From an uncultured delta proteobacterium (GTDB lineage Bacteria > Myxococcota_A > UBA9160 > SMWR01), in contig CAWHTE010000003.1 of assembly GCA_963832165.1 (NCBI GenBank), positions 64,001 to 128,000 of the forward strand: a DNA stretch of 64,000 bases. Reading direction: 5' to 3'. The notes under the pieces are model-generated. The model saw only the letters and a list, made by a program, of their open reading frames with translations. It ran no database searches and was not told where the DNA came from. How positions within the stretch are numbered: position 1 is the stretch's first letter; every line of letters begins with the position of its first letter. Positions 2,430 to 13,753 of the stretch are shown here, one piece after another. The position numbers and the translations under genes were made by a program.

Positions 2430-5078
2430 CTAGGCGGCCCCGCGCGCGATCTCGGCGAGCCGGCGCACCACTTCGCCCGCGGAGCGCACGCGCTGGCTCG
2501 GCCGCTTCGCGAGCAGCTGCTCGACCAGCGCTGCGAGCGGCTCTGGCGTGCCCGGCGCGATGTCGCGCAGGTGCGGCGGCGGCGTGTGGCGGTGGTGGAA
2601 CGCGACGTCGCCGTCCCTGAACGGGACGTGGCCCGTGAGCAGCTCGAAGAACGTCACGCCGAGCGCATAGAGATCGGCGCGGTGGTCGACCTGCTCGCCC
2701 GCGCTCTGCTCGGGTGCCATGTAGTAGGGCGTTCCGCCGACCACGGTGGTGCTGCGCCGCACCTCCTCGACCATCTTCGCGAGCCCGAAGTCCATGATCT
2801 TCACCACCTTCTTGTCGGTGAAGAAGATGTTCGCGGTCTTGATGTCGCGATGGACGATGCCCTGTTCGTGGGCGTACTGGAGTCCCTGTGCGATCTGCCC
2901 GCCGATCTTCGCGACCGTGCCCGCGGACAAGCGCCCCTTCTCGCGCAGCACCCTCTGCAGCGGGCTTCCGCGCAAGAGCTCCATCGTGATGTAGAGCGTG
3001 TCGCTCTCCTGTGCGGCATCGAACAGCGTCACGATGTTGGGGTGGTTGAGCGCGGCCGCCGCGCGCGCCTCGCGCAGGAACAGCTCGATCGCCTTCGGGT
3101 GGTTGCGGATGTGGTCGGGCAGGCGCTTGAGCGCGACCTCGCGGCCGAGCCGCCGGTCGCGCGCGCGGAACACCACGCCCATGCCGCCGCGGCCCACCTC
3201 TTCGATGAGCTCGTAGCGGAAGCCCTCGTCGAAGCCGTCCACGACGGCCCGGCCCGGCGTGAGGTCGGGGCTCGTGGTCTGCGAGAGCAGCGCCTTGCGC
3301 AGCGCTTCGGAGCGCGTGGCCAGGTGCGGCCAGGTGGCGTCGCGCCCGCGCAGGCGCTCGAGCAGCGACAGCGCGCGGTCGTAGTGGTGCGTCTGCTCGC
3401 ACAGCACCGCGAGGCGATCGAGTGCCTCGCTCGGGACGTCCCCCTCCGGGCGCGTTGCGAGCAGCTCCTCGAGCTTGCGCACCGCCAGGTCGAGGTGGCC
3501 TTCCTTCTGATAGGCGTCGGCGAGCAGCAGCACGGCGGTGGCGTAGTCCGCGTGCGACACGGGGATCCGGTGCAGGCATTGGATCGCCTGGGCGCGGTCG
3601 CCGCGCTCGAGCGCCACCTGCGCGGCCTGGAGGTGCTCGCCGTGCTTCGAGAGCGCATCGATCCAGCGGACGACGTCTCCGGCGCGCTGGAAGCAGTCGA
3701 TCGCACTGTGATAGTCGTCCGCGCGCACGAACGCCTCGCCCGCGCGCGACAGCTCTCCCGCGCTGCGGAACAGCTCGCCCGCGCGCTCGTCGTCGCCGAT
3801 CGACTCGAACAGGTTTGCGGCTTTCTCGTACTGGTTCAGCGCTTGATAGGTCTCGGCCGCCGACGCGCGCTCGCCCGCGAGCTCGTAGTGGCGCGCGGCG
3901 CTCTCGAGCTGCCCTTGCTCCTCGTGGAAGCGCGCGAGCAGCCGGTTGGCGATCTGCGTCTGTCCCTCGCGCTCGAGCGCGCGCGCCGCGGTGGCGACGT
4001 CTCCGTTCAGGTACGGCTCGACCGCCGGCGGGCAGCCCGAGAACACGAGCTGGGAGTGGTCGCCGAGATCGACCGCGATCACGCGCGGCTCGAACGTCTC
4101 GACCTCGAGCGCAGCCTCGGCGACGCGGTCGGTGCTGCCGACGAGGATGCGGTGCTTGCCGGGGTCGAGCGTGTACGGGACGGGGCCGCGCGCGAGGCGC
4201 AGCGAGCCGGGCGTGCCGTAGCGCGCGACGAACGCCTCCTCGACCGCGCGCCGGTCCCACGTCACGCGCACCTCCACGGGGCACGCGCCCGGCGCGAAGT
4301 CGAAGCCCACGCGCACGGTCTCGCGGCGCTTCGGCACGACCTCCTGCTCGGCGAAATGCGTCGCGACGATCTCGTCGCTCTCCGAGGTCAGGAGATAGCC
4401 CTCGACCGCGATGAAGTGCCGTCGGCACGGAACCGCGAGGAACTGCGTTTCGCGCGAGACGCCCCAGCGCTCCGTGGCGCTCGCGACGCGCGCGGCATGG
4501 CGCGCGCGATCGACGTCGCTGGGTGCGGCGGCCTTCGCGCTGCCCGCAGTCGCGCGCGTCGCCGAGCCTCACGCAGAACGTGCCGCGCAGGCCGGCCGGA
4601 TAGTCGATCGTCACCGCGAGCGCACCGCGGCCACGCGTGGTGCGCGCGAGCGCACCGAGCAGCAGCAGCAGCGCCACGACCGCCGTCAGCTCGCGCAGCG
4701 CGTCGGTCGTGAGATCGCCGTGCTGGAGCCCCGCGAAGCCGTCCACCGCGAAGCGCGGCAGCCAGGGCTCGATGCGCGCGAACTGTTCGCCCGCGCGCGC
4801 CGACACGACGTCGTAGAGCGCCGCTGCGGCGCTGCCAGCGCGGATCGCTGCGCCGCCCGGCTCGTGGGTGTCCTCGGCCGCGGGCGCCTCCGCGGTCGGC
4901 ACCGCGGCCGCGGGGGGGGATCGAGCAGGTGGGCGGCCTCGTCGAGCGTCATGCGCGGCGCCGGGGGATCGGGCTGCGCGGGGGGGCCGGCGGGCGCACG
5001 GCTCGCATCCGCGCGACTCGCGATCGCGAGCGCACACAGGAGCGTCAGTGCAACGACGCGCGAGCGCTTCGGCGACAT
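2430..5078 (-). CDS. Membrane-anchored Ser/Thr protein kinase with TPR/alpha-solenoid region and C-terminal kinase domain (frameshifts at ~4915 and ~4565)
   Basis: Kinase motifs GRGGMGVV, VALK, HRDIKTAN, DFG, GTPYYMAPE; TPR-like helical repeats; signal peptide (ORF 4686-5078) and TM helix (TAVVALLLLLGALA) join through two frame changes, one in a G8 run. Confidence 0.85.
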
Positions 5079-5162: not shown

Positions 5163-5918
5163 CTAGGCGCGCGCGCCGAGCGCGGGTCCGACCAGCTGCG
5201 CGGCCTCGGCAACGGCCCTGGCGGCCGCTCCGCCGCGCACGACCACCCATTTCTCGTCCTGCGCGGCGCTGATCCGCGTGACGAGGAAGTAGCCGAGGCT
5301 CCCGCTCACGGCGGCGCCGACGTCGCCGACGAGCGAGATCCCATGGGCGATCTGGACGTGCTGGATGCCCGCTGCGGTCTGGAACAGCACCAGCGCGAGC
5401 GCCTCGAACCCGACCCACGCCGCGAGCCCGATCCACCACGCGAGCACGAGCCGCGGGGTGGGCAGCCGCTGCCAGCCGAGCGGATCGGCGGACGCGGGAT
5501 CGCTGCCGCGCCAGACCTCGCTCATCACCTGATACGGGCGCCAGGTGTTGAGCACCGGGATCACGAACGCGAGGTAGGTCCACTCGCGGCCGAAGCGGAT
5601 CCGGCGCACGCCGAGCGCGCGCAGGTTGGCGCGCGCCTGGTGGAGCCAGGGCACGAAGACCGCCGCGATCACCACGGCGCACACGATCTGCGCGAGTCCG
5701 ATCCGCCGGCCCGCCTGGGCGTGTGCGACCTTGGCGATCGGGCCCAGCGACGTGCCGCTGTCGACCGCGGCCATCGCGCGCAGCTCGCCGAGGTCGTAGC
5801 CCGCGGCCATCCAGGCGAGCGCCGCCGCGAGCACGAACAGGCAGCCGAGCACGCGCGCCGACCGGCGCACGGAGAAATAGAGCGGGCGCATGTTCACGGA
5901 ATCGGATGCGTGGCTCAT
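5163..5918 (-). CDS. DUF4328 family membrane protein
   Basis: WLHQARANL...W...FVIPVLNTWRPYQVMSEVW motif, about 4 TM segments; reads in frame with the upstream SPOUT gene. Confidence 0.75.
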   Translation of the reverse strand: MSHASDSVNMRPLYFSVRRSARVLGCLFVLAAALAWMAAGYDLGELRAMAAVDSGTSLGPIAKVAHAQAGRRIGLAQIVCAVVIAAVFVPWLHQARANLRALGVRRIRFGREWTYLAFVIPVLNTWRPYQVMSEVWRGSDPASADPLGWQRLPTPRLVLAWWIGLAAWVGFEALALVLFQTAAGIQHVQIAHGISLVGDVGAAVSGSLGYFLVTRISAAQDEKWVVVRGGAAARAVAEAAQLVGPALGARA

Positions 5919-6657
5919 CTGCGATCCTCTGCGTTGGCGCAGCCGCTCGGCGGCGAGGATCGCCACGGCGGCCTGCAGGTTGTACGACGAGACGAATCCC
6001 GCCATCGGAATGCGCGTGACGACGTCGCAGCGCGCGAGCAGCGCGCGCGGAACTCCCTCCGCCTCGCCGCCCACGACGAGCAGCAGCGGCGGCGTGAGAT
6101 CGACCTCCCAGGGCGCCGCGCTTCCGCTGTCCTCGATTCCGACGATCCGTTTGCCCGCGCGGCGCGCGGCGCCGATCACGTCGCCGGCGCGCTCCCACGC
6201 GACCGGCAGGAAGCGGTCGGCGCGCATCGAGGCGCGCCGCGCCTCGCGCCGCTGGTCGTGGTCGAACGAGTTGTCGATGTAGACGCCGTCGGCGCCGCTC
6301 ACCTCGGCGGTGCGGATCGCGGTGCCGACGTTGCCGGCATAGCGCGCGCCCACGATCAGCCACACCGCGCCGCCGCGCGCCATCACGGTGTCGAGGTCGG
6401 CGTCGCGCTCGGGGCCGATCAGCGCCGCGACCTCGAGCTCACCGGCGAGGCGCGCGTGGCGCCGCTCGCCGCTGCGCACGATCTCGGCCCCGGCTGCCGA
6501 CGCGCGCTCGCACAGGGCGGCGAGCTCGGCCGGGAGCGGGCCCTCGGGCACTACCACGCAGCGCACCGGCTCTCCCGCATCGAGCGCCTGCGCGAGCGCG
6601 GCCTGGCCCTCGATGCGCCGCCGGGAAGGGCTAGGCGCCGGAAGACGAAGTACTCAT
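5915..6657 (-). CDS. TrmH/SpoU family SPOUT RNA 2'-O-methyltransferase
   Basis: GNVGTAIRTA, VVGGEAEGV, RIPMAGFVSSYNL motifs; ATG at 6657 comes into frame if one base near 6639 is removed. Confidence 0.8.
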
Positions 6658-7366
6658 TCTGGTCGCCCGAGTGGCCGTCGGCGCGATAGCGCTGGTCCAG
6701 CGCGAGCGGAAGGCCGGCTGTCCAGGTCGCGAGCTCGGACTCGTCGAAGAAGTGGAAATAACGCACCCAATCGTCGCCGGGGCCCCAGGGAATCAGGCGA
6801 TCACCGGGCTCCAGCTGTGAGCAATCGATCGGCATACGTGCGCGGGAACTGTAGGAATTCCAGTCGACCGCGCGTTCGGCCTCGCCGCGCAGCCAGGTCG
6901 TGAGGACGAGCCGGCCCCCGGGAGCGACGCGCGCCGCGCAGGCTTCGAGCAGGGCCAGGCGGCGCTCCCGGCTGGGCACGCCGTGGATCACCGCGATCAC
7001 CGATACGAGCTCGAACGGGCCGGAGGGCAGGGCGTCCGGATCCGCGACGACGTCGCCGACCTGCCAGCGCGCGCCGGCCAGGCCCATGCTGCGCGCCTGC
7101 TCGAGCAGCGGCTCGCTCGCGTCGACGCCGCAGATCTCGAGTGCGCGCGGCGCGAGCGCCTGCGCCAGGTAGCGCGCGAACCGGCCATGGCCGCAGCCGA
7201 CGTCGAGCACGCGCAGCGGATCCTCACCCGGCGCCGCGCGCAGCACCGCCGCGAGCGGGTCCCAGCCCGGCCACGGCGCGGTGCGCTTCGCGCTGAACTC
7301 GGCGGCGTGGTCGCGGTAGAAGTCGGTGTTGATCGCGGCGAGAGCGCGCACCGTGGCTTCGTTCAT
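6631..7366 (-). CDS. Class I SAM-dependent methyltransferase, Trm9/ALKBH8-like
   Basis: FSAKRTAPWP, VLDVGCGHGR, SVIAVIHG...RERR, APGG...W, RYFHFFDESEL; removing the same base near 6639 gives a TAG stop at 6631-6633. Confidence 0.75.
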
Positions 7367-7393
7367 GCGCGCCTCTGATACCTTCGGCGCCTC

Positions 7394-9155
7394 ATGCAGC
7401 CGCGCACCTCCCGCGCCGGATTCGATCCCGAGCCGCACCGCGCGGAGCTCAGCGCGATCATCGACGCCGTGCTGCGCGCGCGCGAGCTCGATGCGCGCGG
7501 ATCTCGACCGGATCGTGCGCCGCCATCCCAAAGCCGGGCGCGGCATGTTCTCGAAGTCGGAGATCATCGCGGGGTTCCGCGCGTTCGTGGCGGATGCCGG
7601 AGCCGAGGCCGAGTTCGTGCGCCGGTTGCGCATGCGCCCGGTGCGCACGCTCTCGGGCGTCACGCCCGTGACGGTGCTGACCAAGCCGTTCCCGTGCCCG
7701 GGCACCTGCATCTTCTGCCCGAACGACGTGCGCATGCCGAAGAGCTACCTCGCCGACGAGCCCGGCGCGCAGCGCGCCGAAGACAATCGCTTCGATCCCT
7801 ATCTCCAGACGTGGAACCGTCTCGACGCGTATCGGAGCATGGGACACCCGACCGACAAGGTCGAGCTGATCGTGCTCGGGGGTACCTGGTCGCATCACCC
7901 CGAGGCCTATCAGCTCTGGTTCGTCGAGCGCTGCTTCGATGCGCTGTGCGACTTCGGCGAGGCCGTCGATCGGCGCGCCGAGGCGGGCCGCGCCGCGGCC
8001 GACTACCGCGCGATCGCAACGCTCGATGGCCGCGCGCTCGACGACGGCGCCTACAACCGCGCGATCTCGCGGCATCTCGCCGCGGCGCACGGCGGCGCGC
8101 TGCTGCACGCGAGCGAGACGTCGAGCTGGGACGCGCTCTCGGCCGCGCAGCGGCGCAACGAGTCGTCGCCGGCGCGCTGCGTGGGGCTCGTGTTCGAGAC
8201 GCGACCCGATCAGATCGATGCCGCGGAGACCCGCCGCCTGCGCCGGCTCGGCGCCACCAAGATCCAGCTCGGGGTGCAGAGCCTCGACGACGAGATCCTG
8301 CTCGCGAACCGGCGCGGCCACGACGTCGCCGCGACGCGCCGCGCGTTCCGCGAGCTGCGCGCCGCGGGCTTCAAGCTCCACGCGCACTGGATGCCGAACC
8401 TGCTCGGCGCGACGCCCGCGCGCGACGCGGCCGACTACCGGCGCCTGTTCGACGAGGTCGACTTCCGCCCGGACGAGCTCAAGCTCTACCCGTGCCTGCT
8501 CGTCGAGAGCGCGGCGCTCGCGGCGCATCACGCGCGCGGGGAGTGGCAGCCCTACGGCGACGGTGCGCTCGTCGACCTGCTCACCGACTGCATCGAGGTC
8601 ACGCCGCGCTGGTGCCGCCTCACACGCGTCGTGCGCGACTTCTCCGCGCACGACATCGCGGCGGGGACGCACACGGCGAACCTGCGCGAGGTGGCCGAGC
8701 GCGCGCTCGCGGCGCGCGGCGCACGCGCGCAGGAGATCCGCAGCCGCGAAGTGCGCGGGCGGGCGGTTGCCGCGGCGGATCTTCGCTTCCTCGACACCGG
8801 CTATGCCACCTCGATCGGCCGCGAGCACTTCCTCGAGTTCGCCACGCGCGACGACCAGATCGCCGCGTTCGCGCGCTTGTCGCTTCCCGCGGAGCCGGCG
8901 GACGAGGGCGAGCTCGCGAATGCCGCGCTGCTGCGCGAAGTGCACGTCTACGGCGCGTCGCTGGCGCTCGGCGAGCGCGTGGGCAGCGCCGCGCAGCACG
9001 CGGGCCTGGGCCGCCAGCTGATCGACGCGGCCGCGACCCTCGCGCGCGATGCGGGCTTCGCGAACCTCGCCGTGATCTCGTCGGTCGGCACGCGGCCCTA
9101 CTACCGCAGGCTCGGCTTCGAGGACGGAGAGCTCTACCAGCACCGCGCTCTCTGA
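7394..9155 (+). CDS. elp3: Elp3 radical SAM/GNAT tRNA uridine(34) carboxymethyltransferase (frameshift at ~7500)
   Basis: RTLSGVTPV, CPGTCIFCP, MPKSY, KVELIVLGGT, ETRPD, HWMPNL, PDELKLYP, LREVHVYG, QHAGLG, VISSVGTRPYYRRLGF. Confidence 0.92.
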
Positions 9156-11840: not shown

Positions 11841-13256
11841 CTAGTCGCAGTCGCGAGGTCGTTCCAGGGCGCGCGGCTCGACGAGCCCCGCCGGGTGGCG
11901 CCCGAAGCGGTCGAGCACGGACTCGAGCACGGGCAGAGCCGCGAATACGCGTCGCGTGCGGATCAACCAATCCCAGAGCGGCTCGAACTTCTTCCAGCCC
12001 GCGGCGTAGGCGAAGTGGCGCGCGCGGCCGATCCACTCGCGTTTCGCCGACGCGCCGCGCCAGATCGCGCTCCAGCGGTAGAAGTCGCGATAGGCGCCCC
12101 AGTAGCCGGCCTCGAGCTGCTCGGCGGTCATGCCGCGCGTGCGGTACACGACCTGACGCGTGTCGTAGCGATCCCAATCGCGATGCAGGATCCGGCCCTC
12201 GCGCTCCATGCGCTGGTGGAGCGCGGTGCCGGGGTAGGGCGTCAGGATGTGGAACGTCGCGGTCTCGATGCCCTGGCCGACCGCCCAGTCGACCGTACGC
12301 GCGAACACGTCGGGGCCGTCCTCGTCCATCCCGAACACGAAGCTGCCGTTCACCATCACGCCGAGGTCGTGCAGGCGTCGGATCGCAGCGCCGTAGTCGC
12401 GGTGCAGGTTCTGCGGCTTGCGCTGCGCGCGCAGGTTCTGCGCGTCGAGCGTTTCGAAGCCGACGAACAGGCTGCGCAGCCCGCAGTCGGCCGCCTTCTC
12501 GAGCAGGCGCGGCCGCAGCACCGAGTGCACGGTGCCCGCGGCCTGCCACAGCCGCCCCATGCCGCGCATGCCGTCGAATAGCGCCTCGGCGAACGGTTCG
12601 TTTCCGAACAGGTGGTCGTCGAGGAAGTAGAGGTGCCGCCCCGGCAGCCGCTCGATCTCGGCGAGCGCGGCGTCGACGGTCTGGGTGTAGAAGCCGCGGC
12701 CGCCGGCGAAGAACGCGTCCTTGTAGCAGAAGCCGCAGTGGTGCGGGCAGCCGCGCGAGACGACGATCGAGTTCGGCACGAGATAGCGCTCGCGCCGGAT
12801 CAGGTCGCGCCGGATCGGCGGCAGCGCTGCGAGCGTGCGTTGCACCGACCGGTAGAGCGGCTTCGCGCTGCCGGCACGGTAGTCGGCCAGGAACACGGGC
12901 CACGTGTCCTCGCCCGGCCCGAGGAAGATCGTGTCGGCGTGCGCGGCCGCCTCGTCGGGCAGCGAGGTCACGTGCAGCCCGCCGAGGCAGACGTGCGCGC
13001 CGCGCGCGCGGTAGCGGTCGGCGATCTGGTACGCGCGCCGCGCCGACGTGATGTAGACCTGGATTACCACGAGGTCGGGCGCGTCGTCGAGATCGAGCGG
13101 CTCGACGTGCTCGTCCTGGATCACGACCTCGTCGTCGGGCGCGAGATAGGCCGCGAGCGTCGCGAGACCGAGCGGCGGGAACAGCGAGTACTTGATCGGC
13201 CGGTAGTAGGGCGAGAGCGCCTCGGTGAGCGCGGGCAGGATCATCTTCACGCGCAC
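11841..13256 (-). CDS. B12-binding domain radical SAM protein
   Basis: PPLGLATLAA, VCLGGLHVT, SRGCPHHCGFC, FLDDHL, GFET, FVFGMDED, LTPYPGT. Confidence 0.92.
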   Translation of the reverse strand: MRVKMILPALTEALSPYYRPIKYSLFPPLGLATLAAYLAPDDEVVIQDEHVEPLDLDDAPDLVVIQVYITSARRAYQIADRYRARGAHVCLGGLHVTSLPDEAAAHADTIFLGPGEDTWPVFLADYRAGSAKPLYRSVQRTLAALPPIRRDLIRRERYLVPNSIVVSRGCPHHCGFCYKDAFFAGGRGFYTQTVDAALAEIERLPGRHLYFLDDHLFGNEPFAEALFDGMRGMGRLWQAAGTVHSVLRPRLLEKAADCGLRSLFVGFETLDAQNLRAQRKPQNLHRDYGAAIRRLHDLGVMVNGSFVFGMDEDGPDVFARTVDWAVGQGIETATFHILTPYPGTALHQRMEREGRILHRDWDRYDTRQVVYRTRGMTAEQLEAGYWGAYRDFYRWSAIWRGASAKREWIGRARHFAYAAGWKKFEPLWDWLIRTRRVFAALPVLESVLDRFGRHPAGLVEPRALERPRDCD

Positions 13257-13753
13257 GATCGCGGTACTCCGAGCACCATCACCGAGACGGTGCGGTCGCG
13301 GGCCTCGTCGCACTCGAGCAGGAACACCCGCTGCCAGCGGCCGAGCTGGAGCCGCCCGCCCACCACGTTCAGGCACTCGGTCGTGCGCAGCACCAGCGCG
13401 CGCGCGTGGGCGTGTCCGTTCGGCCGCTCACCCGGCGCGAGGTTCACCGTGCGCACCTCGAACCGGTCGTGCTGCCAGCCCGCACCCGCGGGCGCCCAGC
13501 GCTCGAGCAGCGCGCGGAAGTCCTCGTGCAGGAGCGGCTCGTTCTCGTTCACGACCAGAGCCGCGCTCGTGTGCAGGCACTGCAGGTTGGCGAGCCCGTG
13601 TGTGATTCCCGAGCGCTCGACGCACGCGATGAGCCAGTCGGTCAGGTCGACGAAGTGCATCGGGCCCGCGGTGCGCAGCTCGATTGTGCAGGTGAACGCG
13701 GAGAGCGGCGGGTCAGCGGGCAATTCGGACGGGTGCGGGGCGGTTGTCGCCAT
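13247..13753 (-). CDS. yjbQ: YjbQ/UPF0047 family protein
   Basis: HTSAALVVNENEP, NGHAH, GRLQLGRWQRVFLLECD. Confidence 0.9.
   Translation of the reverse strand: MATTAPHPSELPADPPLSAFTCTIELRTAGPMHFVDLTDWLIACVERSGITHGLANLQCLHTSAALVVNENEPLLHEDFRALLERWAPAGAGWQHDRFEVRTVNLAPGERPNGHAHARALVLRTTECLNVVGGRLQLGRWQRVFLLECDEARDRTVSVMVLGVPRSCA

Follow-up and report, generated by a model that had tools for sequence, protein, structure and literature searches.

Archaeal and eukaryotic Elp3 place a carboxymethyl group on C5 of the wobble uridine of tRNA, U34, to give 5-carboxymethyluridine (cm5U). In the archaeon Haloferax volcanii, 5-methoxycarbonylmethyluridine (mcm5U) and the Trm9 (HVO_1032)-Trm112 enzyme have been shown, a single-subunit Elp3 being followed by a Trm9 that depends on Trm112 in vivo, and elp3 and trm9 are reported to be clustered in Sulfolobus (PMC6144793). 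MnmE-MnmG serves the same position and purpose in bacteria, a C5 substituent on U34. Elp3 itself occurs in numerous bacteria (PMC13315578), and an account of 2020 described derivatives of cm5U as still lacking direct evidence in Dehalococcoides and in Elp3-bearing bacteria (PMC7663514); bacterial genes resembling the methyltransferases that partner Trm112 were stated to be undetected in a 2017 account (PMC5372719). Here, we describe a locus in a 64,000-nucleotide stretch (hereafter the window) of the genome of an uncultured delta proteobacterium (GTDB lineage Myxococcota_A; UBA9160; SMWR01), in which an elp3 gene lies head to head with the gene for a Trm9-like class I methyltransferase. A preliminary description, made from the letters of the window, knew of no characterised bacterial Elp3-Trm9 pair, and our search of the open full-text literature likewise found none described (subscription papers and supplements, which could list Elp3 neighbours, were outside its scope). 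The core of the locus is formed by the following features:

7394..9155, plus strand: Elp3, with radical S-adenosylmethionine (SAM) and KAT domains (TIGR01211; best PDB match 5L7J)
7367..7393, between the two genes: divergent gap of 27 bp with a candidate -10-like TAnnnT (motif count over 28 loci)
6631..7366, minus strand: Trm9-like class I methyltransferase of about 244-245 residues (profiles, Foldseek and residue mapping)

The positions that the preliminary description gave for these two genes and for the SPOUT methyltransferase gene behind them, the 27 bp that separate the start codons (7366 on the minus strand, 7394 on the plus strand), and the motifs it quoted (FSAKRTAPWP, DVGCG, SVIAVIHGVPSRERR, PGG..W and RYFHFFDESEL) were all borne out by the window sequence and by domain searches. 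Moreover, the Elp3 and Trm9-like genes form a real, conserved head-to-head unit. Profile searches for elp3, the methyltransferase, mnmG, mnmE, the SPOUT gene and Trm112 were run over an order sample of 41 genomes, consisting of the source genome (5.54 Mb in 11 contigs, 89% complete) and 40 relatives; a phylum sample of 151 genomes was scored for elp3, mnmG and the methyltransferase. Two genomes of the order have proteins identical to ones in records that bear the label Myxococcota. Within the order, elp3 was found in 31 genomes (27 over the cut-off and four partial) and the methyltransferase gene also in 31; both genes are present in 30 and neither in nine, and the two genomes with a single gene of the pair are cut off by contig ends. 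Wherever both genes occur (30/30), they are adjacent and divergent. In the phylum sample the methyltransferase was detected in 21 genomes, all of which carry elp3, and in 20 of them it lies on the same contig beside elp3. A pattern scan of GTDB gave at least 423 confirmed loci of the methyltransferase family, and among the best 80, from several phyla, elp3 is in the flank of 52, divergent in 51 and within 500 bp in 35, with the head-to-head link seen in records labelled Myxococcota, Chloroflexota, Acidobacteriota, Patescibacteria and Gammaproteobacteria.

The pair also excludes mnmG. No mnmG, and no mnmE over the cut-off, was found in any of the 41 order genomes, including that of the source organism (controls were positive in 9/14), and in the phylum sample elp3 (24 genomes) and mnmG (83 genomes) were never found together, 44 genomes having neither. 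Linkage and exclusion together back the pairing of Elp3 with the Trm9-like enzyme in the preliminary description, as a conserved unit standing in place of MnmEG. MnmA is present in the source genome, and MnmL and CmoB gave no match over the cut-off there. A separate observation concerns near-complete genomes that lack both elp3 and mnmG (G018, G030, G034 and G038 in the order, and the 44 of the phylum sample); such organisms may leave C5 of their wobble uridines bare or follow a third route.

The identity of Elp3 is clear. The protein scores 448.8 bits on the NCBIfam model TIGR01211 (cut-off 350), has the Pfam domains Radical_SAM, Radical_SAM_C and GNAT, and finds Elp3 of Dehalococcoides mccartyi (5L7J) as its best PDB match (E 7.9e-98). 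It carries the CX3CX2C cluster motif, REVHVYG and QHAGLG; its CPGTCIFC, HPTDK and FKLH segments align with 5L7J, and lysines match K77 and K193, which are listed among the key residues of the D. mccartyi enzyme (PMC6367351). The linker zinc cysteines (window 8727-8759) are replaced in this Elp3, and are absent also from six other loci compared there. In prokaryotic Elp3 these cysteines are described as strictly conserved, and eukaryotic Elp3 as lacking them (PMC6367351); since the eukaryotic enzyme also does without them, the missing zinc site leaves the Elp3 membership standing.

For the methyltransferase (METHYLTRANSFERASE), Trm9 of Yarrowia lipolytica (5CM2) ranks first in the PDB with a profile of 72 sequences (E 2.7e-14) and again with a wider profile of 52 sequences (E 1.7e-18, positions 27-229); it is also, by a small margin, the first Foldseek match of the predicted model (pLDDT, the predicted local confidence score, 94), at 23% identity. 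A structure-only alignment (VIA-align) did not separate the class I families, which are nearly tied, METTL6, NTMT1 and small-molecule methyltransferases lying within about 2 Z units; 5CM2, whose solved chain has only 184 residues, fell outside the top 50 entries in both searches, a result that was not weighed. No NCBIfam methyltransferase model scores over its cut-off for this protein. The automatic label TRM9 appears on 15 of 120 homologues, among the matches listed, indicating that annotation pipelines already flag some family members.

We mapped the residues of yeast Trm9 onto the protein through the profile alignments, taking their roles from PMC4678810, and counted them in 362 aligned sequences of the family, a set that includes close relatives and some duplicates. 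The pocket is retained as Y17, R28, D82, H128, W158, W194, R202 and N237. Thus, yeast R29 (conserved in 361 of the 362 sequences), D72 (358), H115 (358), W145 (360), W168 (305) and R241 (360) correspond to R28, D82, H128, W158, W194 and R202, whereas the equivalents of Y18 (362) and N271 (352), Y17 and N237, were placed by offset and position, the printed alignment ending two residues before N237. The yeast H116 position, in contrast, is Gly129; His is found here in 277 of the 362 sequences and Gly in 70. The preliminary description had recognised the motif series of Trm9 and ALKBH8, and the motif order and the pocket stand, but its SIAVxH motif hides a His-Gly in place of the yeast-type His-His. 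Because of this replacement we file the copy as Trm9-like and not as a standard Trm9; with the pocket residues retained and H116 lost, the pocket appears maintained and the catalytic dyad altered. The eukaryotic enzymes (Saccharomyces cerevisiae and Y. lipolytica Trm9, and the ALKBH8 domain) therefore share with this protein the class I fold, the order of motifs over positions 27-229 and the pocket, and differ from it in the residues at H116, Y243 and the three Trm112-docking positions (see below); this copy, moreover, is bacterial and encoded head to head with elp3. The archaeal enzyme of Haloferax, likewise prokaryotic and acting after a single-subunit Elp3, is set beside it by description.

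With moderate confidence for this copy, and with higher confidence for the majority of the family that keeps the histidine, we propose that the two enzymes would convert U34 through cm5U34 to mcm5U34 or its 2-thiolated form (mcm5s2U34), replacing MnmEG. Judged by family membership, Elp3 would use acetyl-CoA and a radical-SAM step to place the carboxymethyl group on C5 of U34; the methyltransferase would then bind the anticodon loop and move the methyl group of SAM onto the carboxylate, and 2-thiolation by MnmA would yield mcm5s2U34 on the tRNAs for Lys, Gln and Glu. In the clade that has lost the histidine, Arg28, His128, Arg202 and Tyr17 might position the carboxylate without it. The bacterial pair would then be a variant of the known pathway, here in a His-less version.

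Several points weigh against this proposal. Three elp3 genomes of the phylum sample have no methyltransferase match, and 19 of the 24 elp3 genomes there belong to one order and are therefore kin, not independent events. Among the wider loci, no elp3 flanks the methyltransferase in 28/80; the upstream DNA is at least 2.5 kb long in 19 of these, and nine have short flanks. The single methyltransferase protein, searched without a profile, ranks 5CM2 second among 45 PDB matches, and the Foldseek margin of 5CM2 is small (1.1e-12 vs 6.2e-12). As assembled, the genes contain three frame breaks in 3.2 kb, compared with about 0.4-1.1 expected from the genome background (see below). Finally, in yeast Trm9 the H116A substitution inactivates the enzyme and Y243A lowers its activity tenfold (PMC4678810), and the Y243 position is Phe204 here (Cys in 259/362 sequences, Tyr not being among the residues listed).

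The last point leads to the alternative that survives best, namely that the His-less clade has lost or changed the reaction, the enzyme binding tRNA with cm5U34 and methylating it poorly or making another product, so that cm5U or another derivative would be the organism's end point. A quick tree built from 90 of the 362 sequences places the His-less proteins mainly in one clade of 41 rows, 38 of them His-less (SH-aLRT, a likelihood-ratio branch support, 95), with two separate cases; as far as the aligned sequences tell, the change of His116 to Gly is clade-wide. The rows are of the bacterial family only, and the tree is therefore silent on the donor or origin of the methyltransferase. Loss of the histidine, essential in yeast, tracks loss of Cys204, which is present in 250/277 His-keeping sequences as opposed to 9/85 His-less ones, and the ratio of nonsynonymous to synonymous substitution (dN/dS) of the methyltransferase is 0.46-0.53 in two His-less pairs, above the 0.26-0.27 of two His-keeping pairs. 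However, dN/dS of Elp3 is raised alike in the same genomes (0.25-0.29 vs 0.13-0.20), so that the ratio of methyltransferase to Elp3 is similar, 1.8 in His-less and 1.3-2.1 in His-keeping genomes. SAM- and uridine-binding residues are retained in essentially all 85 His-less sequences, with Y17, R28, H128, R202 and N237 kept in 85/85, and as the role given to H116 is one of positioning in a direct SN2 transfer (PMC4678810), other residues might take it over. We hold a lost or changed reaction to be unlikely, and retain the cm5U to mcm5U pathway as the favoured reading for this copy as well.

The preliminary description also suggested that the methyltransferase might work without Trm112. A native gene for a Trm112-family protein of 82 residues is present in the source genome (contig C11, 69306-69551), and the family was found in 39 of the 41 order genomes, including some without the pair. 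The C11 protein is 54-89% identical over its full length across the order, carries a single cysteine and an insertion of about 35 residues between the two halves of the knuckle, and is longer than the described bacterial form of about 60 residues (PMC5372719). A Trm112-like protein is thus at hand, but the docking surface looks polar. Yeast-type Trm9 docks Trm112 through the hydrophobic residues V59, F78 and V102 (PMC4678810), which map to R52, E77 and Q102 here; across the family, position 52 is hydrophobic in 13/362 sequences, position 77 in 95/362 and position 102 in 164/362. The predicted polar surface would favour independence from Trm112. The predicted complex of the methyltransferase and the Trm112-like protein scored 0.11 against a mark of 0.32 and was weighed neither way. 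The best Trm112 match of the genome, at C2:37645, was set aside as probably foreign, because it lies in a compositional outlier, the initial 80 kb of its contig. That stretch (C2:1-80000) stands out in tetranucleotide composition and is probably chimeric or a contaminant; its order of phosphomannomutase, Trm112 and SIS-like genes looks, we presume, actinomycete-like.

Two further genes follow the methyltransferase on the minus strand:

5915..6657, minus strand: two-domain SPOUT methyltransferase with the RlmB/TsnR/AviRb architecture (PF00588; profile vs 9H1K)
5163..5918, minus strand: DUF4328 membrane protein, the final gene of the minus-strand run (PF14219, E 8.8e-25)

The SPOUT gene had been read as a TrmL-like third step of a compact three-gene wobble module, the 2'-O-methylation of U34 to give mcm5Um, and this part of the preliminary description was not supported. 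The protein is a SpoU-family methylase (PF00588) whose best NCBIfam model is RlmB (66.9 bits), ahead of TrmL (35.2 bits); it reaches none of the NCBIfam cut-offs, that of TrmL (TIGR00185, 190.6) being strict and passed by only 2/14 control genomes. A profile of 18 SPOUT sequences matches the 23S rRNA methylase 9H1K over both domains (positions 20-214, E 6e-21), and TrmL entries at E 2e-10 or weaker. The SPOUT domain begins at residue 97 of a frame of 239 residues and is preceded by an N-terminal domain that aligns with that of 9H1K; in this domain and in its score the protein departs from TrmL, a single SPOUT domain of about 155-165 residues. The two-domain 23S rRNA 2'-O-methylases (RlmB, TsnR/NshR, AviRb and 9H1K) thus share both domains with the protein and are its top profile matches, although it falls below every cut-off for them and forms a subfamily of its own, whose third motif has an invariant YNxQ. 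Two further PF00588 genes are present in the source genome.

The distribution of the gene bears on the same question. It occurs in 24 of the 41 order genomes, directly behind the methyltransferase in 17 (in several families), elsewhere in two, and in five that carry neither gene of the pair, in one case at the edge of a contig. It is absent from 12 of the 31 methyltransferase holders and present in 19, which, set beside its presence in 5/9 genomes lacking both genes of the pair, indicates no association with the pair: the gene comes and goes independently. Of the wider loci, only 2/80 have it. A third step in the stead of TrmL would gain from the result that no TrmL was found at E 1e-10 in the source genome, TrmL-like full matches being present in only 2/41 order genomes, but both of these genomes retain the SPOUT gene too. 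It would gain also from the SPOUT gene lying next door in 8/8 His-less genomic loci as against 7/20 His-keeping ones (three partial loci excluded), but seven of those eight belong to one clade. We consider such a third step improbable. The SPOUT protein is probably a neighbour outside the pathway, a putative rRNA-type 2'-O-methylase adjoining the pair. The bolder conjecture that the Trm9 site has been rebuilt in a Myxococcota clade without the histidine and free of Trm112, and that this clade has recruited the SPOUT enzyme as a fixed partner, the three genes making a wobble base unseen in bacteria (mcm5Um or another cm5U derivative), strikes us as just as improbable. The DUF4328 gene follows the methyltransferase or the SPOUT gene in 20 of 30 relative loci, mostly within the family, and SPOUT follows the methyltransferase in 16 of the 30. 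We know of no link of DUF4328 to tRNA modification.

Elp3 had been described as complete, which is right as to its identity as Elp3 and wrong as to the reading frame, none of the three genes having an intact frame as assembled. The ATG of elp3 at 7394 is in a different frame from the body of the gene, a break near 7495-7502 separating about 34 N-terminal codons that relatives carry in frame. The likely stop of the methyltransferase at 6631-6633 is out of frame and the frame continues to 6551; its closest homologues are about 245 residues long. No start codon lies in the SPOUT frame between the end of the methyltransferase and 6566, the likely start being at 6657, overlapping the methyltransferase end, and the likely SPOUT stop at 5915-5917 is also out of frame, so that the SPOUT frame is fused to the DUF4328 gene through a break near 5920. 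In the closest relative, G004 (82% identical DNA), the SPOUT frame can be read back unbroken as far as an ATG within the end of the methyltransferase gene, and against this genome the window has a net gain of one base near 5920, 6626 and 7496. Other relatives concur on the extra base, G005 and G001 at about 7495-7501 and G002 at about 5921, and base 7502 is absent from the contigs of two of the four public runs compared (contigs of relatives).

The three breaks could be real, the locus decaying in this strain and the genes being pseudogenes. Their excess over the genome background speaks for decay, and nine of the 41 order genomes, having neither the pair nor mnmG, indicate that the pair can be lost. 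Yet when 88,304 coding-like bases were aligned to 20 stretches of G004, 30 clusters of frame-changing gaps were found, 12 of which are one extra base in the source genome and four one missing base; that one-base gains outnumber losses in these alignments suggests assembly error. The gene bodies lack in-frame stops, the G+C content at third codon positions is 0.89-0.94 in all gene pieces, including the displaced N-terminal piece of Elp3, and dN/dS is below 1. The breaks are probably assembly errors, and we give decay little credence. A protein in ENA, P0064, reads through the same methyltransferase stop into SPOUT; its N-terminal half is also absent, on which ground it probably comes from another error-prone assembly, although in the closest strains the C-terminus of the methyltransferase may truly be extended. 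Least probable of all is a methyltransferase that acts not on cm5U34 but on a small molecule, a protein or a different tRNA site, with the elp3 linkage as inherited gene order, for although the structure-only ranking and the silence of the NCBIfam models leave room for it, the Trm9 pocket residues are the most conserved positions of the family, the head-to-head link holds in records of all the labels given above, and the phylum sample holds no methyltransferase without elp3.

With a Trm9-like family that is linked to elp3 and was in no case found together with mnmG, the likely end product of bacterial Elp3 gains a name and can be put to the test. Should the cm5U to mcm5U pathway prove true, the supposed boundary between bacterial (5-methylaminomethyluridine, mnm5U) and archaeal-eukaryotic (mcm5U) decoding chemistry would shift. 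If active alone, the methyltransferase, of about 245 residues, would be a single-subunit model for Trm9 and ALKBH8, and the His-less clade offers a natural test of the need for the proposed Arg/His dyad.

The two genes of the pair would share a very short divergent control region. A candidate -10-like TAnnnT, preceded by TG, lies at 7379-7384 on the elp3 strand, and of the gaps in 28 loci, 21 have TAnnnT on that strand (shuffle mean 6.5, maximum 15). A symmetric TAnnnTA, absent from the window itself, is found in 15 of the 28 gaps (shuffle mean 1.3, maximum 6); this enrichment suggests overlapping divergent -10 boxes, and in many relatives the motif could serve both directions. A full sigma-70 scan of the gap found no site, and the extended -10 TGnTAnnnT was without enrichment (2/28 gaps, shuffle mean 0.9).

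The source genome has 55 predicted tRNA genes with 13 different U34 anticodons, and tRNA-Sec is present. The Arg CGN codons are read by GCG, UCG and CCG anticodons, no tRNA with an ACG anticodon having been found in this 89% complete genome. Elsewhere in the window, going by the translations, 2430-4337 (minus) appears to encode a Ser/Thr kinase-like protein with TPR-like repeats, and 11841-13376 (minus) presumably encodes a B12-binding radical SAM-like protein, preceded by what we take to be a YjbQ-like open reading frame at 13247-13753 (minus).

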